Shown here piece by piece: positions 1 through 18,936 of a stretch of DNA of 19,288 bases. The notes below the pieces were generated by a model. That model had not been told where the DNA came from, ran no database searches, and saw only the letters and a program-made list of their open reading frames with translations. Made by a program: the position numbers and the translations under genes. The stretch's first letter is position 1. Every line of letters starts with the position of its first letter. This DNA is from a virus: UHGV virus genome UHGV-1843802; one strand, 5' to 3'.

Positions 1-260
1 ATCGCAGGCATACCATCAAGTTCTGCCTGTCTGCGAAGCAGCGCCCATACCCGACGATAACCATACGTGGGCAGCTCTCCGATAACATGGTGTATACGGA
101 GAAGCACATCCGTATCATCTGAGTGACGGCTGCGGCGACCATCTTTCCAGTCATCGGTTCGTCTGAGAATTACGTGCAACTGCGCACGCGACACCCGGAG
201 ACAACGGCTGACTAAGCTTACTCCCCATCCCCGGGCAATAAGGGCGCGTGCGCTATCCAC
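1..260 (-). CDS. insD: IS2 transposase OrfB (InsD), N-terminal part only; truncated by the window edge; normally made as an OrfAB fusion by -1 frameshift
   Basis: The reverse complement of 1-260 translates from a GTG at 260 as [32 protein letters not shown]...[27 protein letters not shown], matching recalled InsD. The frame is open to the window edge. Confidence 0.8.
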
Positions 261-583: not shown

Positions 584-674
584 CTGCTCTCCAATGACTA
601 GTCTAAAAACTAGTATTAAGACTATCACTTATTTAAGTGATATTGGTTGTCTGGAGATTCATGGGGCCAGTCTA

Positions 675-1296: not shown

Positions 1297-1667
1297 GCGC
1301 CCACCCCACTTGATTTCTGCATAACAATATCCATGCTCCCACCTTTCGCATAAAAACTAATTAATAAAGAATCTTCAGAAATTGATGTGCAACGAATCCC
1401 CTGCACATCCAAACCTGGCAAATCTTGTCGTAGTTTTTTCATCATTCTCCCTTCAATAGCCACTTCAACTATGTGCGAAGTTTCAGAGCCGAATGGTTCA
1501 TGCTTAAATTCTTCCATTGGATTCCCCCAAGAGGGTAAACCATAAACACTCCCTTCAGGGGTTCGTAACCACTCGTCAAGTCGGGCCATCCATGCTGCGG
1601 TACTTCCTTCTGCAATAATGACACCGCTCTCATTCGTTTGAAGTCTTGCGTCTATTTCATAAAGCAT
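1293..1667 (-). CDS. Hypothetical phage virion protein, 124 aa (possibly a small baseplate component by position)
   Basis: ATG at 1667 with a GAGGA ribosome-binding site about 10 nt upstream on the minus strand. It starts 6 nt after the tape-measure stop and overlaps the next gene by 4 nt, indicating an operon. No motif I can assign. Confidence 0.5.
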   Translation of the reverse strand: MLYEIDARLQTNESGVIIAEGSTAAWMARLDEWLRTPEGSVYGLPSWGNPMEEFKHEPFGSETSHIVEVAIEGRMMKKLRQDLPGLDVQGIRCTSISEDSLLISFYAKGGSMDIVMQKSSGVGA

Positions 1668-1672
1668 CTGTA

Positions 1673-4600
1673 TTAATCCTCAAGCAGAGCATCCAGCGAC
1701 GGGTCATTAATAGTTGTGCTAGCACGTGGTCGCGGTTGCGGCTGCGATGTTTTGACAACCTTATCCGGATCGCCTTTTGTATTGTTCTTGTTCACATTCA
1801 GAAGATCGTTCAGGATAGAGCAGATGTTATCCAGCGCCTTCAACATAGCAGGATCGTTATTTATAGTGTCAGTAGTTAATGGTTGTCTTATTCCGCTTCG
1901 TGCGAGATCTGTTACAGTAGGAAGCTGTGGTGGCAAAGCAAGAAAAGGTTCTTGCACGGCTGACGCAGAGCCAAATATGGCATTATTGGCTTCGTTTGAT
2001 ATACCTCTAATGCTATCTGCGGTTTGTTGAATACCATTATTCAGCCAACTACCGGCGCTCCTGGTAAGCGGGCTAATAGCCCTGGCAATTGTTGAGTTCT
2101 GCCCAGTAGCCTGATAAACCAAATCATTAACAATGCCTGTGCCATCTACCCCACCAATAAGTTGTGAAACGTTATCGCCAATTGCAGGTAACACAGCAGA
2201 GCTAATACGTTTCAGACCTGTTAATGACGAGTCAAACAAAGAGCCAAGCACCCCCTTATCTTCACCATCAATTACCTTGTATCCATTGTCATAAACTGGA
2301 ATCCCCCTTGAGTTTACAGAGATTTTTTCACTCTCTCTTGCCGAAGAAACACCGGAGAGAAGATCCACTGAAGGCATATCGCGTTCAGCTTTTGGTCTTT
2401 TTTGTAAAGCGTCTCTTATATCAGTTACCTGGCTTGCTTTTTGAAATCCAAAAGATTTACCGGTTAAGCTGGATATCTTTTCAGTAAGAGCCTGATCCAT
2501 TCCTTTCGCTTTTTCGGAAAGCGAAGATATAGAACCAAACGAAGTCGCCGACGCAAAATCCTTAATCAGGCCAAGGCTTGTACCAGCAAGGCTGGTAGCC
2601 GCACCTCCAAATAAATTACCTACCCCGCTGTCATTTATAGCGATTAATCTCTCAAGCAGACTTGATGGCGAGCCAGTATTAACATCTACATTCTCTGGAT
2701 TAATCGGTTGCGATTGATTGCCTGTTTTTTGTGGCTTTTTGACTGTCTGAGCATGTTGTGCAACCTCAATTGGCTGTTGTGTTGCTGTCGGAACGGCATC
2801 CAAAACTGGTTGAGCTGGAGATTTTCCATTAGCATATTTTACCTTGCGACCAACACTATATTGCGAATCGCGGGCAATTAGCTGACCACCATTTTCTTTC
2901 TGAATTTTATTAATCCGCGCCAATGTTTCGTCAGAGAATTGTCCCTCCCATCGACCAGTGTTTGTGTTAAATGCCCCAAGAGCATTCTTTATGAACTCAT
3001 TGTTAACCGCCGGGTTTCCACCTTCTTTCGTCGCTATTGCACGAACTAATTGCGTCATAACTTCTGGGTTGCTGACGTCTATTTTTTCATTAGGCGAGAC
3101 GCCAAGATATTTGCTGACGTTATCAATATATTGATTAGTATTGTTCTCCTTTGGGGGTGCCCATTTGGAAATAATACTGGATACCGTCTGTAGCTTCTGA
3201 TACCCAGCAGCGGCGCTGGTGCCGTTGTAATAGCTTGACACCTGGTTTGCCAGCGCCCTGATCCCTTCTTCAGGCGTGTTAAATCGCGCAAAACGTTGTT
3301 CACCTTTTGCATTTGGTGCTTCCAGCGTCGCCCCTTCCTGATTAGCGAAAACAAGGTTGCCGAGGTTATTATTCCGGTAATTGCGGTTTTTAGCGTTGCT
3401 GCCACCAATATTCAGATCCGCTGCAATGGTGTTGCTGGTAGGGGCATTAAATTCAGCCGGGGAAGTATACCCGTGCTCACCAACACCATCTTCACCATCA
3501 CGCCCGCCTTGTAGCTGCTCACCTAAAGAATGAATCGCATCGACAGTTTTTTTGGTGCCGTCTTCAACAGCTTTTTTTACTTGTTTTGTGTTTTCGTCAG
3601 TGGATAAAAATGTATCCTTAAGGCTACCAAAAACAGATTTGGTGATATCTACCGCGCCGTTAACACCACGAGCAATATCTCCGGTATCAAAATTCTGAAG
3701 TTTTTCACCTGCTCTTTCAAATCCTAGCGCAGAAATTCCTTTCCCTATCAAGTTTGTTGCGCCCGACACCAAGCCCCCCATATCGAGCACATTAGCTGTT
3801 GCGTAAGCCGTTTTTTGCTGTTCGGATACAGCATCATCGTCACTTAAACCAAAGGCTGCCTTTTGCGCCTCTGTATCTGTGTAACCATCTATGGCGTCAT
3901 ATCCAGCCATTGCCAGCGAACCGATGATAGGGACCGCTCTTGCCGCTGTGGATGCTGCTGATTTAACTCCTATTTTTTCAGCACTTTTGAGGGCTACAGA
4001 TTCAGTTTTTTTCTTTGCAATGGCTTCGCCGGTTTTAATGGTGGCATCTTCAGCCACAACACCAGCTGACTTCACGGCCTTAGCAGTATTTTTTGTTTCC
4101 TTTGCAATCCCCTTTGATGTATCGCTGATAGTGCTTACATCTTTGGGTTTGCTGATCTTATTTTTAACTACTTTTGCTGCTCCGACACCAGTGCCAGCTG
4201 CAGCACTACCGGCAGCAACTTTTTCGCCAACGGAGAGTGCTTTTTTCCCAAGATTGCGGCCTTTCCTTTTCGATTTATTCCGTTTATTTTTTCCCGTTTG
4301 ATCACCAATATTGATTTTATTTCTTCTGCTTGCTCGATTTTTCCAGAGATCACTTAAGCCGAACTTATTTCCAGAAGACACTGATTTCCGAAGCTTAACT
4401 ATCTCGTCAGAAACATTTTCCAGACCATCAATTATTTTGTTGTCATTGGTCTGAAGGATTTTGGTTTGCTCTTCTACTGCTTGTGCGGATTTTGTCTCAA
4501 CAGCGTTATTAAACGCTTTTGCAGATGTTGCTTTTTGAGAATTCACCGCCGCCGGATAAGTAATTACTGGTGATATTGCTTTCGAGGTTGATGTTTCTTT

Positions 4601-5455
4601 TTTCCCCTTTTCTACCCATTCTTTAAGAGATTCTGCTTTACCTGTGATCTCTTTAGTTATGTCGTACATGCCACGAGCCGCCATCCATAACGGCCCACCA
4701 GCACCGACACCAGCTGCATTTGTTAAAGACTCTTCACTGGAAGACTGATTGCCATCTACCCCCATAATGGAACCTAGCTTTCTGAGAAAGCCAGCTTGTA
4801 ATTTTGCGTCGGCTTTACATGCGTTCTGCAGTTCTTTTTTTCTGGCTACATCCTCATTGCTTTTCTGGGATACAAAACGTCCATTACTATCCCGCAGCGG
4901 GCCTTTTAGACTTTGGGGGGGTTGTGGTTCAAGAGGGGCTGAATTAGCAGCTACCGGTATAAAACCTTCTGATTTTCGGATGGTCTGACGTGATTGCACG
5001 GAGCGAACACTTTCTGGTGTGTTCGTTGCAACGATAGCGCGGTCCACGGTTTGGTTTATCGGTGCCCTTTCCTTTTTAGCAGGGAGACGTTTTTTATATG
5101 GGTTAGTTTGGACATCTCTAACGCTATCAGATGTACTTTGCTCGTAGTCTTTACGCCTGCGTGATAGTCTGTTGCTAACTCTGCCTTGCCTTTCGTCCTG
5201 TTGAGTTATGGTGCTTGCCCCAGAAAGAATGGCGTCTTTTACCTCAGCAAGAGCTTTTAGTTCGTTTGTGCTCGCCTCCTGAATAGCGTCAATTATTGCG
5301 ATACGGTCTTTATTCTCTTTCAAAATAACCTCTCTTTTACCAGCGCGATCAACGTTTCCCGGCTTGAGCTTTGTATTTTTCTTCCAGGGCTTTTGACATA
5401 TGGAGTGCTCGCCATTGCGGTAATTGTTCAACGTCGCTAACGGGCTGATATCCAT
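1673..5455 (-). CDS. Tail tape-measure-like protein, 1260 aa
   Basis: Uninterrupted 3.8-kb ORF with tape-measure composition: long Ala/Gly/Lys/Ser-rich helical low-complexity stretches and hydrophobic Gly-rich segments (AVPIIGSLAMAGYDAIDGY, GGLVSGATNLIGKGISALG). It lies between tail and baseplate-like genes. ATG at 5455; no clear ribosome-binding site, lying 14 nt after the upstream stop. Confidence 0.65.
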   Translation of the reverse strand: MDISPLATLNNYRNGEHSICQKPWKKNTKLKPGNVDRAGKREVILKENKDRIAIIDAIQEASTNELKALAEVKDAILSGASTITQQDERQGRVSNRLSRRRKDYEQSTSDSVRDVQTNPYKKRLPAKKERAPINQTVDRAIVATNTPESVRSVQSRQTIRKSEGFIPVAANSAPLEPQPPQSLKGPLRDSNGRFVSQKSNEDVARKKELQNACKADAKLQAGFLRKLGSIMGVDGNQSSSEESLTNAAGVGAGGPLWMAARGMYDITKEITGKAESLKEWVEKGKKETSTSKAISPVITYPAAVNSQKATSAKAFNNAVETKSAQAVEEQTKILQTNDNKIIDGLENVSDEIVKLRKSVSSGNKFGLSDLWKNRASRRNKINIGDQTGKNKRNKSKRKGRNLGKKALSVGEKVAAGSAAAGTGVGAAKVVKNKISKPKDVSTISDTSKGIAKETKNTAKAVKSAGVVAEDATIKTGEAIAKKKTESVALKSAEKIGVKSAASTAARAVPIIGSLAMAGYDAIDGYTDTEAQKAAFGLSDDDAVSEQQKTAYATANVLDMGGLVSGATNLIGKGISALGFERAGEKLQNFDTGDIARGVNGAVDITKSVFGSLKDTFLSTDENTKQVKKAVEDGTKKTVDAIHSLGEQLQGGRDGEDGVGEHGYTSPAEFNAPTSNTIAADLNIGGSNAKNRNYRNNNLGNLVFANQEGATLEAPNAKGEQRFARFNTPEEGIRALANQVSSYYNGTSAAAGYQKLQTVSSIISKWAPPKENNTNQYIDNVSKYLGVSPNEKIDVSNPEVMTQLVRAIATKEGGNPAVNNEFIKNALGAFNTNTGRWEGQFSDETLARINKIQKENGGQLIARDSQYSVGRKVKYANGKSPAQPVLDAVPTATQQPIEVAQHAQTVKKPQKTGNQSQPINPENVDVNTGSPSSLLERLIAINDSGVGNLFGGAATSLAGTSLGLIKDFASATSFGSISSLSEKAKGMDQALTEKISSLTGKSFGFQKASQVTDIRDALQKRPKAERDMPSVDLLSGVSSARESEKISVNSRGIPVYDNGYKVIDGEDKGVLGSLFDSSLTGLKRISSAVLPAIGDNVSQLIGGVDGTGIVNDLVYQATGQNSTIARAISPLTRSAGSWLNNGIQQTADSIRGISNEANNAIFGSASAVQEPFLALPPQLPTVTDLARSGIRQPLTTDTINNDPAMLKALDNICSILNDLLNVNKNNTKGDPDKVVKTSQPQPRPRASTTINDPSLDALLED

Positions 5456-5469
5456 ATAGAGTCAGGTTG

Positions 5470-6291
5470 TTAATAATGGTTAGCCATCCATTCAGATCTA
5501 ATTGATGGGATAAACTCTCTATTGAGAAAGGGGACGTACAGTGTGGTTGTCACATCTGCACCCTCCTTAGCGTTTTTGCAATGTTGCGGAGGCAGGATCA
5601 GTCGGCTTGAGCCTCTCTCAATAGACATTTTCAGGCCGTGGCGTAGGTCTTTTTGCATAAGCTGTATGCGAGCCACAAGCGGTGTAAACTCGGTTTCAAG
5701 CGCCATGCTTTCAATAATGTCAAAGCGTCGGTTAGCGGCCTGCGTGAAGTCCTCCGGATCGTCTTCAAGCGCCGTGCATAAAGCGAGTTCAGCAATCCGC
5801 ATCCGTGCCACGCCAGCACTGTATTCGGGGCTTTTCATATCAGGAAGTGACGCTCGCATTCGTTCAAGGAGTTCCGCGCCTTTCCCGGTTAATGGTTTAA
5901 GTATCCAGTCAGTTGGTACTCCATTTACTGGTACGTTGGTTTTCACGTAAGGAGGTACAGTGAGTATTTCTACTGTTTGGGCCAGGTCGCTCAGGTTAAT
6001 ATCTGCATGATGCGTATTACCGCAGTGACTGCACTCATAGGAGTAGGTCATTACTGCATCGGGGCGCGAATTAACAAATATCCACCAAAGAGCAGTTCTG
6101 CGATCCTGAACTGTCCAGTTAGCACTGTCGTTAATTTCACCATCCTGCATAGAGTTAAGGTACTCTGTAGTAGTTGCCTCATCTTCTGCCGGGTTCAGGT
6201 CAGAATATTTCAGCGCATCCTTCACGGTAGGGGCGTGGAACTGAATTTCTGTCTCAGGACGGGAAGGCAATGGGAATTTTGGAATGTTCAA
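5470..6291 (-). CDS. Hypothetical phage protein, 273 aa, with a Cys/His cluster (YECSHCGNTHH); first gene of the operon that contains the tape-measure-like gene
   Basis: TTG start at 6291 preceded by a strong ribosome-binding site (GGAGG, 5-nt spacer) on the minus strand; the next in-frame Met is 47 codons downstream. Function unknown. Confidence 0.5.
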   Translation of the reverse strand: MNIPKFPLPSRPETEIQFHAPTVKDALKYSDLNPAEDEATTTEYLNSMQDGEINDSANWTVQDRRTALWWIFVNSRPDAVMTYSYECSHCGNTHHADINLSDLAQTVEILTVPPYVKTNVPVNGVPTDWILKPLTGKGAELLERMRASLPDMKSPEYSAGVARMRIAELALCTALEDDPEDFTQAANRRFDIIESMALETEFTPLVARIQLMQKDLRHGLKMSIERGSSRLILPPQHCKNAKEGADVTTTLYVPFLNREFIPSIRSEWMANHY

Positions 6292-6395
6292 TTATTCCTC
6301 CGAAAAGCAGGTATCTGTTCATTTTCCAGAGGATAGGGAGTGTGTGATTTGCGATGGGGATTGAATGAAGATCTTTGCCGGTCGAGAAGCGATTA

Positions 6396-6537
6396 TTGAG
6401 GGTGATTTTTACACCTTAAGTGACGCTACTCACATATCCACAGAGTATTTTTATAAACCTTTTTCCATTTTTAATCCTTTTTAGATCCTTTTTAGGCGTC
6501 GCTGGAGCCAGTAGTGGCGCGGGCTGTAGAGGAGGCT
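6396..6537 (+). promoter_or_regulatory. Replication origin core: one inverted iteron, a DnaA-box-like 9-mer, and an AT-rich region likely to be the unwinding element
   Basis: Inverted iteron TTGAGGGTGATTTTTACACC at 6396-6415. ATATCCACA at 6434-6442 matches the DnaA box TTATCCACA at 8 of 9 positions. The AT-rich stretch 6445-6500 (tttttataaacctttttccatttttaatcctttttagatcctttttagg) contains repeated CCTTTTT motifs and a GATC. Confidence 0.6.
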
Positions 6538-6658
6538 GGTGTAAGAATTGCCCTCAATTAAATACGATCGGTGTAATATTTGCCCTCAAAAGGTGTAAGA
6601 TTTGCCCTCAAAAGGTGTAGTAATTGCCCTCAAAGTGATGTAAAAATTGCCCTCACCA
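6538..6658 (+). repeat. Five direct iterons (about 20 bp, mostly 22-bp spacing) immediately upstream of the initiator gene
   Basis: GGTGTAAGAATTGCCCTCAA (6538-6557), GGTGTAATATTTGCCCTCAA (6570-6589), GGTGTAAGATTTGCCCTCAA (6592-6611), GGTGTAGTAATTGCCCTCAA (6614-6633), and a degenerate GTGATGTAAAAATTGCCCTCAC (about 6635-6658). Consensus GGTGTAAnAATTGCCCTCAA. Confidence 0.85.
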
Positions 6659-6679
6659 TTCGAAGGATCACACAGGGTT

Positions 6680-7435
6680 ATGAACAGAGCGGAATTAACA
6701 GCAAAAGCCGTCAGCCTGATTGAGTCAGCGACACCTATTAGTCGTAGTTTGGCACAAGCCAATGAGATCACGGAGGCTGCTTATCACCTGACTCGCGACC
6801 AAAAGCGACTGTTGTTTATTGTGGTGGGAAGACTTCGCTATGCTTCTAAGGATGGCGTTCTTGGTTCAGGTGCCTGTGAGTTGACGGTCAACGAATATGC
6901 AGAGATGTATAATTTGCCCTCTGCTGAAGCCAGCAAGGATATTCGTAAGGCCATTTCAGGGCTTAGCGAGAAGAAAGTTACGATATATAACCCTGATGAA
7001 TCGACCGAATCAGAAGACAGTTATGAGTCTTATCCTTGGATGATTAAGGATGCCTATTCACCACGGCGCGGGACTTACATTATTCATCTTAATCCATATC
7101 TCATGCCGTTTTTTACTCTGCTTGATAAGAGATTCACAAGGCTGAATTTTACCGAAGTATCTCGCCTTACAAATCCTTATTCTATGCGGCTTTATGAGTC
7201 CTTATGCCAGTACAGGAAGGATGATGGAAGCGGCTTTGCCATACTTGGCGTCGAATGGATGCGGGAGCGTTATGGGTTACCAAAAAGCTATCAGCGGTAT
7301 GCCGAATTTAAGAGAAGTTTTTTAACGAAGGCTGTAGCAGAGATTGAAAAAAATACAAAAATGAAAATAGTCTTCTCAGAGGTGACGGAAGGCGGCAAAG
7401 TTACCAGGATAAAATTTACTTATCAGCAGTCTTAA
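6680..7435 (+). CDS. repE: Iteron-binding replication initiator, 251 aa, resembling F-plasmid RepE (RepFIA)
   Basis: ATG at 6680; the track's upstream TTG at 6647 lies inside the fifth iteron. Motifs shared with recalled F RepE: EAAYHLTRDQKRLLF, SAEASKDIRKA, YESYPWMIKDAYSPRRGTYIIHLNPYLMPFF, NPYSMRLYESLCQYRKDDGSG. Same length as RepE and flanked by iterons on both sides. Confidence 0.85.
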   Translation: MNRAELTAKAVSLIESATPISRSLAQANEITEAAYHLTRDQKRLLFIVVGRLRYASKDGVLGSGACELTVNEYAEMYNLPSAEASKDIRKAISGLSEKKVTIYNPDESTESEDSYESYPWMIKDAYSPRRGTYIIHLNPYLMPFFTLLDKRFTRLNFTEVSRLTNPYSMRLYESLCQYRKDDGSGFAILGVEWMRERYGLPKSYQRYAEFKRSFLTKAVAEIEKNTKMKIVFSEVTEGGKVTRIKFTYQQS

Positions 7436-7770
7436 GGGCAATTTTTACACCCTTCTCAAGGTGTAGAATTTGCCCTTAACGATCGGCAATTGAGGGCAAT
7501 TTTTACATCTTAATTGCATGTATCTTGTTATTAGCAAGTTGTGTTTTTATATAACGTATTGATATGTAAGGGATTATGTAAAAATCACCCTCAACCAATA
7601 TCGTGCGTATCGTGCATTCTTATTGCGCTTTTTTATTATCATTCACTGTGTTAACTGATTGATATTATTGAAATGTGTAAAGAATGCCTTCATTACAGAT
7701 GAATTGATGATGTAAAAAATGCCCTCAAAATTGCGCTACCTTCCCTACCCGCTATCGTTGAGGGCGTGGG
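7436..7770. repeat. Downstream iteron cluster in mixed orientations (copy-number control locus, analogous to incC), in AT-rich non-coding DNA
   Basis: GGGCAATTTTTACACC (inverted, about 7436-7451), GGTGTAGAATTTGCCCTTAA (7460-7479), TTGAGGGCAATTTTTACATC (inverted, 7490-7509), GTAAAAATCACCCTCAA (about 7578-7594), a degenerate TGTAAAGAATGCCTTCA (about 7676-7692), GATGTAAAAAATGCCCTCAA (about 7708-7727), and a half site GTTGAGGGCG (about 7757-7766). No ORF of any length. Confidence 0.75.
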
Positions 7771-7817
7771 TGCTGACGGGAAATGAGCAACCCTCCAGCA
7801 CACATAATTAAAGCTAT

Positions 7818-8525
7818 TCAGAATTTGATCACTCCACTGATAGCCCCCTTTAACGCACTTGTAGCCATGCCAGCGGCACCGTTGACCAAAGCAGAAACAC
7901 CTGAGCCTGCGGATGTGTATTTCTGGAAAGTGATTGGGTATGACAAGAACTCTGACACCTGATCACGTGAGCGAGTGATTTCCCCAAGTTGTGTAGGAAA
8001 TACGCGCATTTCTTCTTCCAGTTCTTTTCCGCCGTCCTGAGTCACCCGGTAGACACGGATTTTCATCAGATATTCAGGAGGAAGGTTTATTGTTCCATCA
8101 GGGTTTGTTACACGAGAACGACGCTCTTTGAACCAGTCCATGATCTTGCCATCTTCGGTATCCCTCACGGTCATAGTGACCGGTCCGGCGCTAACATAGG
8201 TTGGCTTGCTGAATTCTACGCTGCCGATCACCTTGCTTTCTGTCTCGATGTTCCCACTGCTGTAGGTGATATCCTTCACGAACATATCGAAGCCGTTCAG
8301 ACCATCCACTTCAACGGTCCACTGCCACCCCTGGGCGTAACGGATACGCATAGCAGCAGCAACAATATTTTTCCCGTAGGCAATATCGCTACTGTAATTC
8401 CCGCTTACCCCGCCGCCTGATATGGCTTTATCAAGAATGTCGCTAATGAGGTTGCTGGTGAATGATTTCGTGTTAAATGACAATGCGGTGGTCAACGTTC
8501 TACCAACGCTGCTGAAAATACTCAC
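7818..8525 (-). CDS. Hypothetical phage virion or tail protein, 235 aa
   Basis: GTG start at 8525 with a GGAGG ribosome-binding site 7 nt upstream on the minus strand. Last gene of the tail block before the replicon. No assignable motif. Confidence 0.5.
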   Translation of the reverse strand: MSIFSSVGRTLTTALSFNTKSFTSNLISDILDKAISGGGVSGNYSSDIAYGKNIVAAAMRIRYAQGWQWTVEVDGLNGFDMFVKDITYSSGNIETESKVIGSVEFSKPTYVSAGPVTMTVRDTEDGKIMDWFKERRSRVTNPDGTINLPPEYLMKIRVYRVTQDGGKELEEEMRVFPTQLGEITRSRDQVSEFLSYPITFQKYTSAGSGVSALVNGAAGMATSALKGAISGVIKF

Positions 8526-8540
8526 TCTGCGCCTCCAGCG

Positions 8541-9092
8541 TTAAAAAATGGTAGCCCCCGGAATAATGGCCCGGTTTGAGGACATTTTTTCCTCAATTTC
8601 CTGCACGCGGGCATATAGCGTGGCTTCATCGGGCAGATCGGAGTAGTCAAATTTCCCGTCGATGGACGCTCTACGCTGCCTGGCGACATTTCTTACGTTG
8701 ATAAGCGCCTCCAGATATTCCTCCAGCATTCCAATGATTGCAGGAGGCACTTGCCATTCATCCAGCTTTCTGTCGCGTAGATTAACCAGATACAGCATTC
8801 GAAAAGGCCAGCGTTCTGAACCTGTTAGCTCTAATTCAATAAATCCGGATAATTCATCCGAATAGACCAACAAGCCGTTGTTGTCGGTAACATGAACCAG
8901 AGAGAGATAATCTTCTGGCAACGGGATTGCAGTACCACCAGCTCTTTCAAGTTTTAACGTTTTCACTACCCCTGCCCTGTCCTGATACGTGGTCAGAGCT
9001 TTGATCAGGAAGGCTTTCAACGTTTCTTCTTCACGCACAAGTAGTGGATTAAATCGCTCTTTAACGCTTTCTAATAATTCAATTGGTGTCAT
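8541..9092 (-). CDS. Hypothetical phage virion or tail protein, 183 aa
   Basis: ATG at 9092. Tightly packed in the minus-strand operon, 15 nt upstream of the next gene. Confidence 0.5.
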   Translation of the reverse strand: MTPIELLESVKERFNPLLVREEETLKAFLIKALTTYQDRAGVVKTLKLERAGGTAIPLPEDYLSLVHVTDNNGLLVYSDELSGFIELELTGSERWPFRMLYLVNLRDRKLDEWQVPPAIIGMLEEYLEALINVRNVARQRRASIDGKFDYSDLPDEATLYARVQEIEEKMSSNRAIIPGATIF

Positions 9093-9146
9093 CGTTGCCT
9101 ACAACTCAATAACAAGGATGTTCCCGCCACAAGGGCGGGATAGGGA

Positions 9147-9638
9147 TTATTCCGCCCAGTTGTAAACAATGCGCAGGGAAGGTTTAACGACCGCCGTTAC
9201 GTCTTCGGATGAGAAGTCCACGGCGTCGGAATACACTTTGCAATGAGAATATGTGCGGATCAGACCTTTATGGTTACCGCTATTCGATTCAGCCGCCGCC
9301 TGTAAGGTAATTTCCAGATATTCTTTTCCGTATACCATCTGTTTTACAGCGGCGAGAACTGCGCCTTCGATAGTTTCCGCGCATGTGACCTGAAATTCAC
9401 CAGAGTTGCGTAATGGTCCGTGCTGGTTGAATTTCATGCCACCAGGGGCGTAATCCTCCACATCTTCGCGTGTCATTTCTGGTAACTGAGCTGTACGAAC
9501 TAGTACAGACAGATGTTCGTAACCCTTAATGGTCATCCAATATTCAGAACCAATAAGTTTTTCGCCTGCAGCCAGGTTTTTATTAAACCGGGATTTTAGA
9601 AAGGCCATATCGGCTTTTGTATTTGCAAAACCGGACAT
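9147..9638 (-). CDS. Hypothetical phage tail protein, 163 aa (size and position fit a tail tube protein; not verified)
   Basis: ATG at 9638 with a strong ribosome-binding site (AGGAG, about 7 nt spacer). Follows the sheath-like gene by three genes. Confidence 0.5.
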   Translation of the reverse strand: MSGFANTKADMAFLKSRFNKNLAAGEKLIGSEYWMTIKGYEHLSVLVRTAQLPEMTREDVEDYAPGGMKFNQHGPLRNSGEFQVTCAETIEGAVLAAVKQMVYGKEYLEITLQAAAESNSGNHKGLIRTYSHCKVYSDAVDFSSEDVTAVVKPSLRIVYNWAE

Positions 9639-9646
9639 AAATACTC

Positions 9647-10219
9647 CTACACAAAAACAGATGAGATATTGCTACGGTTGATCGATGTATTACCGCTGCA
9701 TTGCAGGGTTACCGTGTTATGAGTGAAATAGCCTTCCGGTGTGCGCGGGGCGTCCAGTTGGTAACTCACGCTTTTGATAACAACGTCGGTAAGGGCTATG
9801 TTCCTACCTATGTTTAACGTTACTGTCTCCGGGCGACGACCGAATGGCGCTACATTGTTCAGTTCCGGCGATTCCATCTTCAGCAATGCTGTAATGGCTG
9901 CGTTCACTTCAAGTTGCGCGTTCGTTGTCGCCATGAAATCAATTACCAGATTAAATTCAGGCGGTTGCTGACCTTCCCAAACAAGCATTGAGTTGAAGAG
10001 GGTTTTTGTTGTTACGCCGGTTGCGGTCTGAAGTGTATCTGCAAGAGAGCCAGCCGCAGCGCTAATACCGCCAAGTAAACCTCCTACTGACTGGTTTTCA
10101 AATGGTGATTGCCACATTGATGACAGTTCTGCGGTAGATCCTTCACCGATATAACCGACGACCATATCCTCTGAAGAGAGGATATAAACCTTCATTAACG
10201 GACTTATTCCGTCAGGCAT
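9647..10219 (-). CDS. Hypothetical phage virion protein, about 190 aa; start uncertain
   Basis: The ORF is open from a TTG at 10237. The first ATG is at 10219 and another at 10195; none has a convincing ribosome-binding site. The reading frame itself is clear and the stop is 9647-9649. Confidence 0.45.
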   Translation of the reverse strand: MPDGISPLMKVYILSSEDMVVGYIGEGSTAELSSMWQSPFENQSVGGLLGGISAAAGSLADTLQTATGVTTKTLFNSMLVWEGQQPPEFNLVIDFMATTNAQLEVNAAITALLKMESPELNNVAPFGRRPETVTLNIGRNIALTDVVIKSVSYQLDAPRTPEGYFTHNTVTLQCSGNTSINRSNISSVFV

Positions 10220-10286
10220 TATCGCGCCGCAAATCAAACGCTATTTCTCCCAGGTAGAGGCCACCTTTGCAGGCGGCCTATGTCAC

Positions 10287-11021
10287 TTACAAACCGCGTT
10301 TTTTGCGAATGCGCATTGATTTTTTGCGGTTGATATTCGCTACGGATGTATGTGCTTTGCGGCGTGCTTTTTTCAGCGCCTGTTTTTGCAATGACGTCAT
10401 GCGGCGAGGACGCGGGCGTTTACGGATGATGGTAACCTTGCCATCACGAACCACTTTTTTACGTACCGCTTCCAGCATTGCGCTATCACCACCAGCAACG
10501 GTGTAAATGGCAATAGCTGTTTCCATCATGTCGGTGTCGCTTTCGGAAAGAGCGTCATAAACACGTTCGGCAGCTGAGTCATCTTCATCGTCGATCATTT
10601 CGGTTACATCGTCCTGATCAGCGCCAAGCGCGACAGCTGCATCAGCAAGAGCTGCGAGAGCATCGTTATAAGCATCGATTTGCTCATCGGTGAAATCGGT
10701 GTCTTCATCGATATCAGCCAGGCCAGCCATAGTGATTGCTAATGCATCAAATGAGTCAGCCTCCGGATCACCATCTTCAACCCAACCAGCAAGCATGGAC
10801 GCTGCCAGGCTGCGCATATCACCTTGTGCACGGGATTCAACCGCTTCCATCATCGCGGTTTCAATGTCGTCTTTGGGCTTTGGTTGAGTGTCCTTTCCTT
10901 TCTGTCCTGCGCTTTCCAGCATGGCGTTATCATTATTGTCCTGCGTGGATTTATCACCGCTTTCAAAGCAGCCAGAACCGAAAATCGCACGCATAAAAGG
11001 ATCAGCAGTATAATTTTTCAT
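10287..11021 (-). CDS. Highly acidic protein with a strongly basic Arg/Lys-rich C-terminal tail, 244 aa; function unknown
   Basis: ATG at 11021 with a GGAGAGAGG ribosome-binding site about 8 nt upstream; the track's upstream GTG at 11042 is less likely. The N-terminal two-thirds are rich in Asp/Glu/Ala (DGDPEADSFDALAITMAGLADIDEDTDFTDEQIDAYNDALAALADAAVALGADQDDVTEMIDDEDDSAAE). The last 50 residues are basic (RKRPRPRRMTSLQKQALKKARRKAHTSVANINRKKSMRIRKKRGL). Confidence 0.55.
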   Translation of the reverse strand: MKNYTADPFMRAIFGSGCFESGDKSTQDNNDNAMLESAGQKGKDTQPKPKDDIETAMMEAVESRAQGDMRSLAASMLAGWVEDGDPEADSFDALAITMAGLADIDEDTDFTDEQIDAYNDALAALADAAVALGADQDDVTEMIDDEDDSAAERVYDALSESDTDMMETAIAIYTVAGGDSAMLEAVRKKVVRDGKVTIIRKRPRPRRMTSLQKQALKKARRKAHTSVANINRKKSMRIRKKRGL

Positions 11022-11065
11022 ATTCAAACCTCTCTCCCCCACATCATTTAGCGGGGGGTTATAAA

Positions 11066-12724
11066 TCAGCGCATCAGAATTGGCTTACCGACGATTCGGC
11101 GAGCTGTACCGGTCGGACAAACAGACCAGGACACTTCCCACAGATCGATGTCCTTTTGGACAACCTGAACAACATATGGATCTTCGCCCTGGGACTTGTC
11201 ACGTGGAGTAACCAGCGCACCGGCTGCAACGTAACGGTCAAGCAATTCAGTCATTGCTTTCATTAGCGTTTCTTTGGTAATGCCATCCGGTTCGTGCTTA
11301 ATCGCCTGAGCTACTTCATAGAAATCTCTGGCGATGGCGTTCATCAAGGAAGACACATGCTGGAATCGCAGATAGTTGTTTTTGCTGTAAGTTGTTAAAG
11401 AGTCGTCAATGTAAACGGACCCGTCAGCAGCAACTGAAACTGGATTAATGCGCGCAAGAACGAACGCTTCACGATCAACTGCACCGATATTTGGAATTCG
11501 GGCAATGTTCTGTCGATCAATAATCGCGCGTGATATACCTGCCGGTGCGTAATGCCAACCACCAACATCCGGTACCAGCGCTACCCCTTTTGCTTTTGCT
11601 ACGAATGCGTCGCAACTAATGCCATAGACGACATTCATCCCAGTGAAGGTATCTCGGCAGGAGAGCGGGAAGTAGTAACGGCTTGGTTGATGTGAGCCGC
11701 CAAAACTATGGCTTTTCGCTTCTGAAATAGCGTTTTCAGGTGTCTGGTTGCCCTTCAGGTCATAGAACATGTCTACGCGAACGTCTTCAGCCAGCTTTTT
11801 GATTGCGGCTAAGGCGGATGCGTCATAACAGCCCAGTGACAGCAATGCGGTGTAATTAACCTCTGAAGCTTCGAGAACCTTTAATGCTTCCAGATAGTCT
11901 TCAGTGTCAATTTCGGACAGATCTCCATCAGTACCACCTTCAAAAGCTACATCCTCAAAAATGAGTTGAGCAGCGGATGCTTCTGCATTATCTGCCAGCA
12001 CGGCACCAATGCGAGTGGACTGGCTTTCAAGCAGTGTCGGAATCCATGCTGGTTGGCCCATGTCGTTAGTGCCTTCTGGATTGAAAGACACTTGGTGGCT
12101 TTCCAGCACCTCAATGGACCCATCGGTTTGTTTTTCTTTCAGCGTCAGCGTAAAGAGTTCGCTTTCTTCATCATCGCGAGTTAGTGATAACGTGCGATTT
12201 TGAGATGCATCACCATCTTTGATGAAGAATAATGCCTTCTCTTCACCTTTAATCTGGGGCGTCTCTTTGGGTGTGAAGGACACTGATTGAGTCGTTGCAG
12301 TTGAAGCAACACCAACGCTTAATGTGTCACCTGGATTTACTGTGGTTTCAGTAGGTTCAACGGAAAGTTCTTTGCTCGCCTTTGCCGCTTTTGCTTTGCC
12401 CACAACGGAAACAGAAATACCCGGCACCTTCATGTCTTTAGCGCAAACTCGAACGACATATCCGGAGCCGCCTTTTACTGCACGCTCCACGTGGCGGTAT
12501 GGTTCAAATGCCGCTCCCAGACGAGGGTGAATCGGTGAACCTAATACGCTTTGATAAGTCGTATCGTCAACTTTCAGTACCTTACCCGGTGCGCCACGAC
12601 GCGATATTACAAGCCCAGCAAAGACGGATGCGCCACCGCTGGTATTGGTGAGGGTAGCGTCAGCATTTACTGACATTACAGCAACGCCAGCTGCCTGCCC
12701 TACCGAAAAACTAATCTTATTCAT
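11066..12724 (-). CDS. Putative contractile tail sheath protein, 552 aa
   Basis: ATG at 12724. Size and position (first gene after the capsid and decoration genes and an attenuator hairpin) fit a sheath. The C-terminal third (...GVALVPDVGGWHYAPAGISRAIIDRQNIARIPNIGAVDREAFVLARINPVSVAADGSVYIDDSLTTYSKNNYLRFQHVSSLMNAIARDFYEVAQAI...) has the spacing pattern I associate with sheath C-terminal domains such as P2 FI. Unverified. Confidence 0.5.
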   Translation of the reverse strand: MNKISFSVGQAAGVAVMSVNADATLTNTSGGASVFAGLVISRRGAPGKVLKVDDTTYQSVLGSPIHPRLGAAFEPYRHVERAVKGGSGYVVRVCAKDMKVPGISVSVVGKAKAAKASKELSVEPTETTVNPGDTLSVGVASTATTQSVSFTPKETPQIKGEEKALFFIKDGDASQNRTLSLTRDDEESELFTLTLKEKQTDGSIEVLESHQVSFNPEGTNDMGQPAWIPTLLESQSTRIGAVLADNAEASAAQLIFEDVAFEGGTDGDLSEIDTEDYLEALKVLEASEVNYTALLSLGCYDASALAAIKKLAEDVRVDMFYDLKGNQTPENAISEAKSHSFGGSHQPSRYYFPLSCRDTFTGMNVVYGISCDAFVAKAKGVALVPDVGGWHYAPAGISRAIIDRQNIARIPNIGAVDREAFVLARINPVSVAADGSVYIDDSLTTYSKNNYLRFQHVSSLMNAIARDFYEVAQAIKHEPDGITKETLMKAMTELLDRYVAAGALVTPRDKSQGEDPYVVQVVQKDIDLWEVSWSVCPTGTARRIVGKPILMR

Positions 12725-14915: not shown

Positions 14916-15073
14916 GGTTAAGCCCTAAATTCGGGCGCGGCGTGAAGGTTCTTTTGACGGGCTAACAATACCTACTTTGTGATTTAGTCAATAGGTTTAG
15001 TAAAATAAAATCTATTAACACGCATGTTGTTATGTGATTTAATTTTAGTTTTCTAACACAAAACATTAGAGTT

Positions 15074-15466
15074 ATGGCGTATCGAATCTTTGTTTCGTAT
15101 AAAAATGGCGCTAAGAGCCACTCTCTGAACACAACAAGTCGCTTTCTTGTTGAGGCGCAGTTGGCATCAATTCTTGCCGAAAGTGAGATACTCTCGCTCG
15201 CTGAACGGATCGTTATCCAGTTTTCTGGTAGAGATATACTCAATGTCCCCGCCCTCACCCCGGCATCCGAAGTTATGGAATCAATTAAATGGCCTGTATG
15301 CGGATGTCCTGCCAGGGTTGAAGAGCCGGTAACTGCAACGCTCTACATGCCGAAAGCTGTAAGAGATTGGCTTGCTATGGTTGGCAATGGGAAAGTCAGT
15401 GCTGGACTTCGCAAGTTAATTGAAATGGCAGATATTCCTGAGTTAAAAAATGCATGGCGACAATGA
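15074..15466 (+). CDS. Hypothetical protein, 130 aa, with a C-terminal ribbon-helix-helix-like DNA-binding motif; first gene of a two-gene accessory operon
   Basis: ATG at 15074 after a 158-bp AT-rich region divergent from the capsid operon. The C-terminal segment PVTATLYMPKAVRDWLAMVGNGKVSAGLRKLIEMA has the strand-helix-helix pattern of Arc/CopG-type RHH domains. The N-terminal 90 residues are unassigned. Confidence 0.55.
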   Translation: MAYRIFVSYKNGAKSHSLNTTSRFLVEAQLASILAESEILSLAERIVIQFSGRDILNVPALTPASEVMESIKWPVCGCPARVEEPVTATLYMPKAVRDWLAMVGNGKVSAGLRKLIEMADIPELKNAWRQ

Positions 15467-15482
15467 GTAAACAAGGGACAAA

Positions 15483-15941
15483 ATGAGTCACGTTAACCCA
15501 TCAAAAACACAATATCGCTTAATGCTGGCGATCGCGTCAGCTATACCAACCAGCCTGAATCCCCCGGCAGGCTATCCCGCTGTTGTTGATGATTGTTTTC
15601 AGTATTACGGAGAAGACATCCTGAGCCAGTCCAAAGCGCTCAAGCAGTTATGTAAGGCAGGTATTCTTCACTGTATCGGAGATCCGGACGATTTTGTTGT
15701 TATGCTGGCGGATCGTGACTCTTTTCTACTGTCCTGGAAAGCCGGTGCGCGCGAAGCACGTTTGGGGAATGGTATTGGTTACATAGACTATAGTGATTTT
15801 CCGCTGGCATTTGCTGGTGGATATATGCATTGGCATGAGCGAAATAGAGGCCGTCAGCGTCAGTATCGCTTGAGTGACTTTAACGTCTGTCACGGTTTCG
15901 AAGAAGCTGACAGCCAGGACATCTGGCTTCAGGAGCCTTGA
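15483..15941 (+). CDS. Hypothetical protein, 152 aa, unknown function; second gene of the accessory operon
   Basis: ATG at 15483 with an AAGGGA ribosome-binding site 4-5 nt upstream, 16 nt after the upstream stop. Its 3' end overlaps the convergent spanin-like gene by 13 bp. No recognisable motif. Confidence 0.55.
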   Translation: MSHVNPSKTQYRLMLAIASAIPTSLNPPAGYPAVVDDCFQYYGEDILSQSKALKQLCKAGILHCIGDPDDFVVMLADRDSFLLSWKAGAREARLGNGIGYIDYSDFPLAFAGGYMHWHERNRGRQRQYRLSDFNVCHGFEEADSQDIWLQEP

Positions 15942-16261
15942 TCCCCCTTCCCTTCCCAAATCTCCCTGTTTCTTTGGTTATTCAGTGCGTTTCGTTGGTT
16001 GCATTCGTCGATCGTGCTGAATAACTGTTCAGCGTATGTCGGATACTTGTTTAACAGCACTGGCGTGTCCTCTGGCACTAAACAAGGGGAGTAATCAATC
16101 AGATTTGCCTGCGGCTTGCTGGTGGCTTCTACGGTAATTTTCACTGGCACGCTGGTTGATGGCTTTTGCCCGTTCCCGCTGCATCCTGATAACGTCATCA
16201 GGCACACGCACATCGTTAATCCCAGCACGGCGTAACGCATTTTCAAGGCGAGTGATTTCAT
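15929..16261 (-). CDS. Putative o-spanin (Rz1-like outer-membrane lipoprotein), 110 aa precursor
   Basis: Lipoprotein signal with lipobox LSGC (MKSLALKMRYAVLGLTMCVCLMTLSG-C) and Ser at +2. The mature part contains Pro and Cys. The gene starts inside the i-spanin-like ORF in a different frame and extends beyond its stop, the overlapped spanin architecture. Start is ATG 16261 (GAGG upstream) or ATG 16240. Confidence 0.5.
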   Translation of the reverse strand: MKSLALKMRYAVLGLTMCVCLMTLSGCSGNGQKPSTSVPVKITVEATSKPQANLIDYSPCLVPEDTPVLLNKYPTYAEQLFSTIDECNQRNALNNQRNREIWEGKGDQGS

Positions 16262-16568
16262 TCTGGCTTTCCTCTCGTTGTTTGATTAGGTTGGCATTCA
16301 GTTCTGCTGTTTTGCGCTGGTACTCCTTTTCCAGTGCTTTAATTCTTTCGTTTTCGGTCAGCATGGCTGAGCGAGCGTTCTCACTTAACTGTAATGCGGT
16401 AGAAAGCGTGTTGTTCGTGCTTTCCAGTTGTGATTTTGAGTCTTCAAGCGATCGGACATACCTGATGTGTTCGATAACTGCCGTCGTTGTTCGGTAAATT
16501 CCAGAAATGGCTAAAAGCGCAATTACAATCAAAATTATCTTTTTCAAAACCATCCTCTCCAGGTTCAT
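16095..16568 (-). CDS. Putative i-spanin (Rz-like), 157 aa: one N-terminal transmembrane helix followed by a coiled coil
   Basis: N-terminal hydrophobic segment KKIILIVIALLAISGIY, then a long charged helical region (LEDSKSQLESTNNTLSTALQLSENARSAMLTENERIKALEKEYQRKTAELNANLIKQREESQNEITRLENALRRAG). The lipoprotein gene is embedded in and overlaps it. No ribosome-binding site at the ATG at 16568. Confidence 0.5.
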   Translation of the reverse strand: MNLERMVLKKIILIVIALLAISGIYRTTTAVIEHIRYVRSLEDSKSQLESTNNTLSTALQLSENARSAMLTENERIKALEKEYQRKTAELNANLIKQREESQNEITRLENALRRAGINDVRVPDDVIRMQRERAKAINQRASENYRRSHQQAAGKSD

Positions 16569-16623: not shown

Positions 16624-17430
16624 CTATGGTTCCTTTTTGGTGTTCTTTTGGAGCGCATCGATAACGCCTTGTGGCATGATTAAACTGATTGCCGGACTCA
16701 TTACTGCATCATCCAGTAGAGAACCAGTTAACGTGATGGCGACAGCGTTCTCTAAACCTTTGGTTGCCTGAGTGGTTGACGTTTTAATGCGACCTGTAAG
16801 GGCTACGACACTCTCACTTGCTGAGTTAATTTCGGAGAGTAAAGCTTCGGCGGCTGTCACTGCTTCCCGTAAAGCATCAATTTCATCCTGAGTAATGACT
16901 GGAGCCTGAGCGCCCCCAGCACCACCCTGTCCACCATTGCTTTCACCACCACCAGCACTTCCGGCAGCTTCAATTTTTGCGTTAATGGCGTTCATGGCGG
17001 TTTTCAGAGCATCAAGTTTTAGCGCCGTCAATGCGTCCGTCAGAGATTGCGGAATGGAAACATTCCCCATTCCCTCAACAAGGGCGAAAGCAGGTATGGG
17101 GGTCAGCTCGTTACCTTTTGCGTAGCATTCCCAGCCAATCTTCATCTGTAACAGCTCTGATGGTTTGGTGTATGGGGAAAGAGAATCAGCCAGTAATGAA
17201 GACGCTTTGCTGGCCTCATTGAGCTGTTCAGAAAAGCCAAGCAATTGAGTAGTCCAGGCCGAAACAGAATCAGGATAGGTTTTATCGGCGTGAACTATTC
17301 CCTGTATGGCGCTGGCGAGCGATGAGGCTTTTACAGAAGCTGCCCGGCTTATGGTTATAGATTCTGGTGTAGAGATACCGGCATCTGACAGAATTTTGAA
17401 GGCTTTAACTTCACCTATTGAATCAAGCAT
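16624..17430 (-). CDS. Hypothetical protein, 268 aa, Ala/Ser/Leu-rich and predicted helical with a Gly-rich linker (AAGSAGGGESNGGQGGAGGAQAP); translationally coupled to the upstream PAAR-like gene
   Basis: The ATG at 17430 overlaps the PAAR-like gene stop (TAATG). The track's longer 301-aa version would start inside the PAAR-like gene in another frame. No catalytic motif and no transmembrane segment. Confidence 0.55.
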   Translation of the reverse strand: MLDSIGEVKAFKILSDAGISTPESITISRAASVKASSLASAIQGIVHADKTYPDSVSAWTTQLLGFSEQLNEASKASSLLADSLSPYTKPSELLQMKIGWECYAKGNELTPIPAFALVEGMGNVSIPQSLTDALTALKLDALKTAMNAINAKIEAAGSAGGGESNGGQGGAGGAQAPVITQDEIDALREAVTAAEALLSEINSASESVVALTGRIKTSTTQATKGLENAVAITLTGSLLDDAVMSPAISLIMPQGVIDALQKNTKKEP

Positions 17431-17714
17431 TATGCAACCTGAAAAATATCCTCGCCGTTGGCGATAACAGAACCACAAGAAAGCGGATCGCCTACACAGA
17501 CAACTCCCTTTCCACCTATCGAAAACCATACTCGCGTCGATACAGCTGCCCCTGGATGTGCACTGTTACCGTCAGTGTGACTGGGAAACATGGCACCATC
17601 TACAACAACTGGCTTACCGTTAACGGTGAACCAGGGAACAGTTTCAGCTACCAGTCGCGGCGGAAATCCTCCGTGACCAGAACAAAGGGTGTCGCTGGTG
17701 GCTATTGCGCTCAT
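17430..17714 (-). CDS. PAAR-like domain protein, 94 aa (putative tail-spike tip protein)
   Basis: ATG at 17714 with a near-consensus ribosome-binding site (AGGAGGT, 6-nt spacer) on the minus strand. The sequence CSGHGG...TVNGKPVVVDGAMF...HPGAAVS...SIGGKGVVCVGDPLSCGSVIANG follows the pattern of PAAR-repeat domains (HGG, then NGKP-AAR-GD, repeated, with conserved Cys and Gly). The motifs are divergent, so this is a provisional call. Confidence 0.55.
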   Translation of the reverse strand: MSAIATSDTLCSGHGGFPPRLVAETVPWFTVNGKPVVVDGAMFPSHTDGNSAHPGAAVSTRVWFSIGGKGVVCVGDPLSCGSVIANGEDIFQVA

Positions 17715-17799
17715 TCTTCACCTCCTGGTTATCCTCCTATTGTCATCACTTTGTTATTTCGTCATTCAAACTGAGAGTTAAATTTCGGAATATTTTTGT

Positions 17800-17953
17800 A
17801 TTCTCAATTCATTCTCAAATAAATCTCACTGTCAGACCATCATTCATTGGGTGATTAAGATATTCTCAAAATGAACTCAATAAGCGCTCTTTTTATCTCG
17901 TTTGGTGTGGATTTTTGGGTGCTTCTCTTTTAAAATTACATTTTGATTCTCAA
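17800..17953 (+). promoter_or_regulatory. parC-like centromere and promoter region: repeated ATTCTCAA motifs, three of them in tandem at 11-bp spacing, upstream of parM
   Basis: ATTCTCAA at 17800-17807, 17811-17818, 17862-17869 and 17946-17953; the degenerate AATCTCAC at 17822-17829 continues the 11-bp phase. R1 parC is built of 11-bp direct repeats bound by ParR. The region also serves as the divergent promoter region for the PAAR-like operon. Confidence 0.5.
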
Positions 17954-17979
17954 ATGTGTCTCAGAAGTGGAGCAAGAAG

Positions 17980-18936
17980 ATGCGCATTTTTATCGATGAT
18001 GGTTCAACCAATATCAAAATGCTGTGGGAGCACGACGGGGAAACTCGCACTCACATCAGCCCTAACAGCTTTAAGCGCGGATGGTCAGCAACATTTGGTG
18101 CTGGCAAGCCGTTTAACTATGTCATTGACGACGAAAAGTATTCGTATGATTTGATCTCGCCAGATGTTCTGCCGACGAATAACGTGGAATGGCAATACAG
18201 CCCGCTTAACGTCCTGGCTGTTCACCATGCCCTGCTGACAAGTGGCATTGAGCCGCAGGAAGTAGAAATTGTGGTCACGCTGCCTCTGGCGGAGTTTTAC
18301 GACGTCGACGCGCAATACAATCTCGATAACATCGAGCGCAAGAAAGCCAGCCTTATGCGCCCCGTCACGCTGAATAAAGGCAATGTGTTCACGATTAAGA
18401 AAGTTACGGTACGCCCGGAGTCTATTCCGGCAGGAATTGGCCTGTGCGACAATCTGAACCCTGCCCATTCTGTTCTTATCGTCGATTTGGGTGGAACTAC
18501 CCTTGATGTTTCAATGGTCGCCGGGCAAATGACGGCAGTTTCCCGTGTTTTTGGCGATTCGAATCTTGGTGTATCACTGGTCACCAGGGAAGTAAGGCAA
18601 GCACTTGCCAGAGCCAATACCGAAACGTCAAATTACAATGTCGATCAGCTCATTATTAACCGCCACGATGAAGATTATCTGAACGACAATATCAATGACC
18701 CATCAGCGATTGGTGATGTGAAAAAGGCCATTGCCGCAAGCATTGACCGTCTGCGTACCCGCGTTCTTGATGTGATTGGCGACTTTAAAGGATATACGCA
18801 TGTCATGGTGATCGGTGGTGGCGCACCGCTGGTGGCAGATGCAATTCGCGAGCAAGTTAATATTCGTGATGACCGTTTCTTCGTGGCGGATGACCCGCAA
18901 CTTGCTCTTGTTCATGGCCTGAAAGCAATCGGTTAA
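17980..18936 (+). CDS. parM: ParM, actin-like plasmid segregation ATPase (type II partition), 318 aa
   Basis: ATG at 17980 with a GGAG ribosome-binding site about 8 nt upstream; the track's GTG at 17956 is less likely. The N-terminus MRIFIDDGSTNIKMLW and the motifs HISPNSFKR, NVLAVHHALLTSG, ESIPAG, DLGGTTLDVS, GDSNLGVSLVT and GYTHVMVIGGGA match recalled R1 ParM (StbA). Confidence 0.9.
   Translation: MRIFIDDGSTNIKMLWEHDGETRTHISPNSFKRGWSATFGAGKPFNYVIDDEKYSYDLISPDVLPTNNVEWQYSPLNVLAVHHALLTSGIEPQEVEIVVTLPLAEFYDVDAQYNLDNIERKKASLMRPVTLNKGNVFTIKKVTVRPESIPAGIGLCDNLNPAHSVLIVDLGGTTLDVSMVAGQMTAVSRVFGDSNLGVSLVTREVRQALARANTETSNYNVDQLIINRHDEDYLNDNINDPSAIGDVKKAIAASIDRLRTRVLDVIGDFKGYTHVMVIGGGAPLVADAIREQVNIRDDRFFVADDPQLALVHGLKAIG

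Follow-up and report, generated by a model that had tools for sequence, protein, structure and literature searches.

A D6-type, P1-like phage-plasmid encodes a PAAR spike-tip protein coupled to a fast-diverging homologue of P1 UpfB

Introduction

The viral genome UHGV-1843802, analysed here as a single window of 19,288 nucleotides, carries two adjoining genes on its minus strand, one for a PAAR-like protein of 94 residues (17430..17714) and one for an all-helical protein of 268 residues (16624..17430). We report that these genes are the D6-type orthologues of the UpfC/UpfB pair already described in phage P1, and that they encode a known virion part, not a toxin cargo. The pair most probably forms the distal end of the tail's cell-puncturing apparatus in a D6-type, P1-like myovirus phage-plasmid. 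The virion positions of UpfC and UpfB are taken from published work on P1: the P1 pair has been placed in the virion by cryo-electron microscopy (cryo-EM), whereas the D6-type pair is known here from its genes and from structural models.

Results

Escherichia phage D6, a P1-like myovirus maintained as a plasmid prophage (D6 record), matches the window at 98.7% identity, and 121 records of plasmids from Escherichia, Salmonella, and Shigella match the region as well. Judged by this nucleotide identity, both genes lie in a D6-type, P1-like myovirus phage-plasmid. The D6 record labels the 94-residue gene 'similar to P1 gene upfC' and the 268-residue gene 'similar to P1 gene upfB', and these names are used below. 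Both genes are conserved in 36 viral contigs from IMG/VR as well as in the 121 plasmid records. Given this conservation, and given that the ratio of non-synonymous to synonymous substitution rates (dN/dS) is well below 1 for both, upfC and upfB are more than chance open reading frames.

The 94-residue protein is, by profile matches and predicted fold, a phage PAAR spike-tip protein, as the original prediction had supposed. Its score against the Pfam family PF05488 (PAAR_motif) is 27.2 bits, just above the cut-off of 27.0, and it matches phrog_281, a phage PAAR family, at 8.4e-29. A phmmer search of PDB sequences returned P1 UpfC (9vyi_A; 1.4e-35) and T4 gp5.4 (1.4e-5). The AlphaFold2 model, built on 35 homologues, has a predicted local distance difference test score (pLDDT) of 95.6 and shows a small conical β-fold with pseudo-threefold symmetry. 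Foldseek superimposes this model onto P1 UpfC in the baseplate structure 9vyi with a template modelling (TM) score of 0.96, onto T4 gp5.4 (4ku0_D) and 9f4b_BA with a TM score of 0.92, and onto the type VI secretion system (T6SS) PAAR protein VCA0105 of Vibrio (4jiv_D) with a TM score of 0.88. His14, His46, His53, and Cys80 are invariant in the 35 UpfC-type homologues; in view of published PAAR structures, these four residues are the putative metal site. P1 UpfC is also 94 residues long, is 56% identical, and has in common with the D6-type protein the PAAR cone fold, the His/His/His/Cys set, and a gene position directly 5' of upfB. The match to the NCBIfam equivalog for T6SS PAAR proteins, NF033420, reaches 34.2 bits, against a cut-off of 124. 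Many copies of the PAAR spike-tip protein in NCBI and UniRef, including P0109, P0131, P0135, and P0140 in our set, carry the label 'alanine racemase', an annotation error that has spread.

The spike protein on which UpfC would sit, D6_66 ('similar to P1 gene 5'), is encoded in the D6 genome outside the window. We saw no HxH motif at the C-terminus of D6_66, and because spikes without this motif need a separate tip protein (rule quoted in PMC12407873), the D6 spike would be expected to need one.

The 268-residue protein is, on profile evidence, homologous to P1 UpfB over its full length and diverges fast. It falls into phrog_1559 (1.5e-110), a family with no assigned function, and its sequence identity to P1 UpfB is only 27%. 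An hhalign comparison of a profile of 27 homologues with P1 UpfB nevertheless gave a probability of 99.9% (E-value, 1.4e-32), with 258 aligned columns running from end to end. The two proteins are of similar length, and in both phages the gene lies between upfC and a spanin pair. When 1.84 billion representative proteins were searched exhaustively by profile, only 72 UpfB relatives were found, and nearly all of the full-length ones have 240-265 residues. Two distant family members, P0098 and P0105, had no tblastn match in sequenced phages, and for another the contig was too short for neighbouring genes to be seen. The D6-type clade has conserved blocks of its own, such as QMKIGWECYAKGN at the place where P1 UpfB has QLDIGWDVYCRAN.

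The AlphaFold2 model of the 268-residue protein consists of ten helices, with a mean pLDDT of 88.5 and a predicted TM score of 0.80. Residues 160-173, between the helices 140-158 and 181-238, have pLDDT values below 50 and form a disordered loop. The flexible loop, which is rich in Gly, Ser, and Ala, spans residues 158-176 approximately (16903..16959, minus strand). It occupies the same position throughout the family, with a length of 10-23 residues and a varying composition (G/S/A/P/T/E), and hhalign places the G/S loop of P1 UpfB at this position as well. The protein had been described as low in complexity from its sequence; this is accurate for the loop only, and the rest of the chain is predicted to be helical and well ordered.

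Sequence conservation in the UpfB family is highest, by column entropy, in residues 91-118, SELLQMKIGWECYAKGNxLxPxPxFxLV (17077..17160, minus strand). The C-terminal 45 residues are nearly fixed as well, and most of the variation falls in the N-terminal helices, the hairpin helices, and the loop. From this pattern, the two fixed blocks are candidates for the part of UpfB that would dock on the conserved PAAR cone.

UpfB is acidic (net charge, -10) and shows no signal peptide or lipobox in its sequence. It has no predicted membrane span either: the maximum 19-residue hydropathy is 1.39, where the conventional threshold is about 1.6. The model is a plain helical bundle without an enzyme fold. 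Searches against Pfam (with the single sequence and with all 27 family members), NCBIfam, PADLOC, and PDB sequences returned sub-threshold or low-complexity matches only. When the model was compared with viral models using Foldseek, a weak resemblance to DUF7217 proteins emerged (E-value, 2e-3 to 4e-2; TM score, 0.44-0.64), from which other myoviruses may contain remote structural counterparts of UpfB. The matching proteins are from Pectobacterium phage Wc4, Serratia phage vB_SmaA_3M, and one unnamed entry; the DUF7217 protein of Escherichia phage FEC14 matches more weakly still (E-value, 0.33; TM score, 0.32-0.40). There is no link at the sequence level, as the DUF7217 Pfam family matched none of ten distant UpfB family members.

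The two genes are tightly joined. The upfC gene is preceded by the Shine-Dalgarno sequence AGGAGGTGA (17718..17726, minus strand), a perfect anti-Shine-Dalgarno match of nine nucleotides and the longest among the 24 gene starts that were checked; AGGAGGTG occurs once in the window, before this gene. The stop codon of upfC overlaps the start codon of upfB in a TAATG (17428..17432, minus strand; CATTA on the plus strand), with one base in common. Both features had been pointed out in the original prediction, and both are confirmed. The Shine-Dalgarno sequence of upfB is a weak AGGT, six nucleotides 5' of the ATG and within the end of upfC, which fits translational coupling of upfB to upfC. Of the 36 IMG/VR loci, 35 retain an overlapping junction (TAATG or TGATG), even where UpfB identity is as low as 28%. 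In P1, by contrast, the upfC stop and the upfB start lie a few bases apart. In all 36 loci, and also in D6, in P1, and in the metagenomic relative L041, the UpfB-type gene has a PAAR gene directly upstream of it. A spanin pair follows the UpfB-type gene in most of the 36 loci, and the junction between UpfB and the i-spanin overlaps or has a gap of at most nine nucleotides in 17 of them.

A promoter-like element, AAATAACAAAG-N4-GACAAT, lies 5' of the PAAR gene (17739..17759, minus strand) and was recognised by pattern counts and conservation. The general pattern, AAATCACAAAS-N4-TAnnnT, has three copies in the window against 0.28 expected, and none of 200 shuffled sequences reached three. The copies (6330-6350, 14965-14985, and 17739-17759) are all on the minus strand, 45-70 nucleotides upstream of the starts of the pmgB-like gene of the pmgB/sit operon, the capsid gene, and upfC, respectively. 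The same block is conserved 5' of upfC in diverged relatives. The motif is thus a candidate D6-type promoter element of the late type, and its presence before pmgB/sit, capsid, and upfC genes alike suggests that upfC and upfB are co-regulated with virion genes. Scans of the window for sigma-70 promoters and terminators gave counts at or below chance, and an Rfam scan gave no match. A palindrome 5' of upfC, AACTCTCAGTT, was considered as an activator site and dropped, as its single copy in the window is not above chance.

The upfC/upfB pair stands apart from the rest of the tail genes: those for the baseplate and tail in the window occupy 218-12724, 5-17 kb away from the pair, with the capsid gene in between. 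This isolation, and an operon that continues into the spanin pair, had been noted from the sequence; both are borne out by the map of open reading frames, and the terminator scan found no terminator-like site between upfC, upfB, and the spanin genes. The order upfC, upfB, spanin pair matches that of P1 (upfC, upfB, ppfA, mlp, upfA), and the operon layout is therefore the P1 layout. Two distant relatives are arranged differently. In L041 (3236-6750), a gene-6-like hub gene, a gene-5-like spike gene, a PAAR gene, and a UpfB-like gene are contiguous; the spike protein is 35% identical to D6_66, and the UpfB-like gene is followed by a gene for 110 residues and no recognised spanin pair. In L040 (1175-6522), the PAAR gene likewise comes directly after the spike gene. 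In both relatives, then, the PAAR gene is directly 3' of gene-24/6/5-like hub and spike genes, which suggests that the hub-spike-PAAR order is ancestral and was later broken in P1 and D6. Since the pair adjoins the spike module in these relatives, its isolation looks like the result of rearrangement rather than the sign of a separate function.

UpfC and UpfB differ sharply in their rates of change. Among 15 proteins that this element has in common with P1, UpfC is the most conserved (56% identity). UpfB is the least conserved virion protein at 27%, compared with 40-56% for the 13 other virion proteins (40-55% when UpfC is set aside). Within one D6-group clade, the identities are 89% for UpfC, 59% for UpfB, 88% for the capsid protein, and 93% for ParM. 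The dN/dS of UpfB is 0.15-0.20, and that of UpfC, the capsid protein, and ParM is 0.03-0.06; by this measure, UpfB is under purifying selection four to five times weaker than that on the other three. It had been asked whether the 268-residue gene varies between relatives while the PAAR gene is conserved, and the answer is positive in degree: of the virion proteins compared, UpfB is the most and UpfC the least diverged from P1.

The two genes that follow upfB are predicted to encode two-component spanins of the Rz/Rz1 type. The i-spanin-like open reading frame (16095..16568, minus strand; 157 residues; likely start, ATG 16553) begins fifty-five bases past upfB. In its product, a hydrophobic segment at the N-terminus precedes a charged helical region, and the product matches the Rz-like spanin family phrog_214 (9.8e-16). 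The gene for the o-spanin-like lipoprotein (15929..16261, minus strand; 110 residues) overlaps it out of frame at 16095-16261 and matches the Rz-like spanin family phrog_456 (1.2e-5); its product has the lipobox LSG|C after MRYAVLGLTMCVCLMT, and its match to the Pfam family O_Spanin_T7 is below the cut-off (E-value, 0.01). The predicted P1 spanins, ppfA/mlp (PMC9025707), occupy the same genome position, and both ppfA/mlp and lambda Rz/Rz1 likewise combine a membrane-anchored helical i-spanin with an overlapping lipoprotein o-spanin. Compared with the P1 proteins, the D6-type o-spanin is 31% identical, whereas the i-spanin has no detectable similarity. The o-spanin gene of the D6 record (D6_54, 73 residues; 18030-18251 of the locus L001) starts at an internal GTG, which removes the lipoprotein signal MRYAVLGLTMCVCLMTLSG|C. 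The longer open reading frame retains this signal. The PHROG families 17138 and 17671 are likewise confined to the C-terminal portions of the two spanins.

Other features of the window concern neighbouring genes. A RepA-like plasmid replication gene (D6_42; 6647-7435, plus strand) is located inside the tail block, between the pmgB-like and tub-like genes; P1 has no corresponding gene at this position. Two open reading frames overlap on opposite strands 5' of the capsid gene (14962-15258, minus strand; 15074-15466, plus strand). The minus-strand frame, of 98 residues, matches phrog_30037 (1.2e-52) and is unannotated in D6, where the plus-strand frame is annotated instead; the promoter-like motif of the capsid gene falls within this stretch (14962-15466). 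Finally, four to five direct copies of ATTCTCA(A) at 17797-17963, in the intergenic stretch that separates the upfC promoter area from the ParM/StbA gene (ATG 17980), are probably the parC-like centromere repeats of a ParM-type partition system.

Discussion

The interpretation of the D6-type pair draws on a series of studies of P1. UpfC was predicted to be a gp5.4-like spike tip in 2022, using HHpred (PMC9024508). A preprint of 2025 (10.1101/2025.07.21.665459) and a paper of January 2026 (PMC12810830) built UpfC on the gp5 trimer in maps of the P1 baseplate, and it is monomeric there (PMC12810830; PMC13611949). The January 2026 study also attributed to UpfB an additional 'tripod' density that is anchored to the spike tip, and speculated that gp5, UpfC, and UpfB form a membrane-piercing apparatus (PMC12810830). 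A later paper of the same year repeats the tripod assignment, calls the role of the tripod unclear, and describes UpfB as α-helical with a flexible loop at one end (PMC13611949). The ten helices and the disordered loop of our D6-type model match this description. As one of two options, the original prediction had proposed that the 268-residue protein might be an unusual spike accessory protein, and this option agrees with what has been reported for P1 UpfB (PMC12810830).

Combining these studies with our results, we propose the following mechanism, in which the late promoter, the UpfB surfaces that dock on UpfC, and the job of the tripod are the inferred elements. A single copy of the UpfC-type protein would cap and sharpen the blunt β-helix of the gp5-like spike trimer. 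The UpfB-type protein would dock on the PAAR cone, at its three pseudo-equivalent faces, giving a 'tripod' as on the P1 spike tip, with its flexible Gly/Ser/Pro-rich loops pointing away from the virion. Both proteins would be made late, from one transcript that continues into the spanin genes, and translation of upfB would be coupled to that of upfC via the overlapping stop and start codons. On infection, no other part of the central spike would reach the outer membrane before the UpfB legs, which would be carried into the envelope, or shed at it, together with the spike.

Several points weigh against placing both proteins at the spike tip of D6-type phages. The tripod assignment in P1 is an AlphaFold3 model fitted to a medium-resolution map (PMC12810830), and the copy number of UpfB differs between the two 2026 papers ('three trimeric' as opposed to 'three copies'). 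The main text of the paper reporting mass spectrometry of the P1 virion makes no mention of UpfB (PMC9024508). Knock-down of P1 upfB or upfC by CRISPR interference gave no plaque phenotype (PMC10695390), and deletion of upfC was harmless for plaquing (PMC9024508). In the D6-type pair itself, the binding of UpfB to UpfC is inferred from homology and synteny only. Because P1 forms plaques in the laboratory despite knock-down of either gene or deletion of upfC, the tripod is likely, by analogy, to have an accessory role, improving the efficiency of penetration on particular envelopes.

A different role for a tripod at the same location would be that of a sensor of the host surface or a secondary binding device, whose divergence tracks the lipopolysaccharide (LPS) core or the outer membrane, rather than that of a passive piercing aid. 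The tripod is the most distal structure on the axis of the P1 tail (PMC12810830; PMC13611949), and T4 without its spike tip fails on a host with truncated LPS (PMC12407873). The low identity of UpfB to its P1 homologue and its elevated dN/dS are also what a sensor would show. However, the dN/dS of UpfB is well below 1, and the divergence is accounted for just as well by a helical scaffold under relaxed constraint. Nor did we find a carbohydrate-binding or receptor-binding fold in the UpfB model. We regard a sensor as rather unlikely.

The other option of the original prediction was that the 268-residue protein is a cargo, by analogy with secretion systems in which a PAAR protein is followed by what it delivers. 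Taken further, UpfB would be a T6SS-like effector riding on the PAAR tip to act on a target in the host. In T6SS loci, the gene adjoining the PAAR gene typically encodes a variable toxin and is accompanied by an immunity gene. The D6-type pair does have some of the logic of such modules, in that a tip protein carries something, and T6SS PAAR proteins with downstream or fused effectors (of the VCA0105 and c1882 type) have the PAAR fold in common with the 94-residue protein (TM score, 0.87-0.88). The upfB gene is genetically coupled to the PAAR gene, and UpfB is the fastest-evolving protein of the module. Furthermore, work on P2 has indicated that the spikes of contractile phages, with their tips, are translocated into the periplasm (summarised in PMC12407873), so that a protein attached to the tip would enter the envelope. 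Against this, the gene downstream of the PAAR gene is not a polymorphic set but one orthologous family of uniform length (about 245-270 residues) at every locus and in every relative examined. The searches of Pfam, NCBIfam, and PADLOC found no toxin, enzyme, or defence domain in UpfB, its fold is a plain helical bundle, and no immunity-like gene adjoins it, the next genes being those of the spanins. The pair has no T6SS context, and the PAAR protein itself falls far short of the cut-off for the T6SS equivalog. The partner is a conserved structural orthologue rather than a variable toxin with its immunity gene, and in essence a recognisable baseplate component. An exchangeable cargo, and with it a delivered effector, is thus very unlikely.

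That UpfB could instead be an accessory of the envelope or of lysis, working with the downstream spanins and absent from the virion, is barely credible: the common operon, the close junctions with the i-spanin gene, and the silence of the main text of the P1 proteome paper would fit, but UpfB lacks a signal peptide, a lipobox, and a membrane-spanning segment, its tie to the spanins is looser and less widely conserved than its coupling to the PAAR gene, the UpfB-like gene of L041 sits in the hub-spike-PAAR block with no recognised spanin pair after it, and UpfB fits the tip density in the cryo-EM map of P1 (PMC12810830).

A spike tip made of UpfC and UpfB has consequences for annotation and for the biology of contractile tails. 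Phage-plasmids of the P1-like and D6-like kinds occur commonly in Escherichia, Salmonella, and Shigella, and the result corrects the labels 'hypothetical protein' and 'alanine racemase' that are widespread for these genes. The way in which contractile tails get through the outer membrane is still only partly explained. Among the most conserved parts of contractile machines is the spike tip, yet its partner here is the least conserved protein of the virion. The obligate coupling to a PAAR gene, the linkage to spike genes in distant relatives, and the elevated dN/dS provide handles on the role of the tripod, as do the conserved blocks that are candidates for docking, next to variable helices and a variable loop. 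One speculative idea, which we put forward with considerable doubt, is that the UpfB tripod is a rapidly evolving module of the tail tip that senses or engages the outer membrane or LPS core, or is delivered into the periplasm with the spike, and in this way tunes which hosts can be penetrated by a P1/D6-type phage-plasmid. If this were true, contractile injection systems would have, in the UpfB tripod, a spike-tip appendage of a new class.

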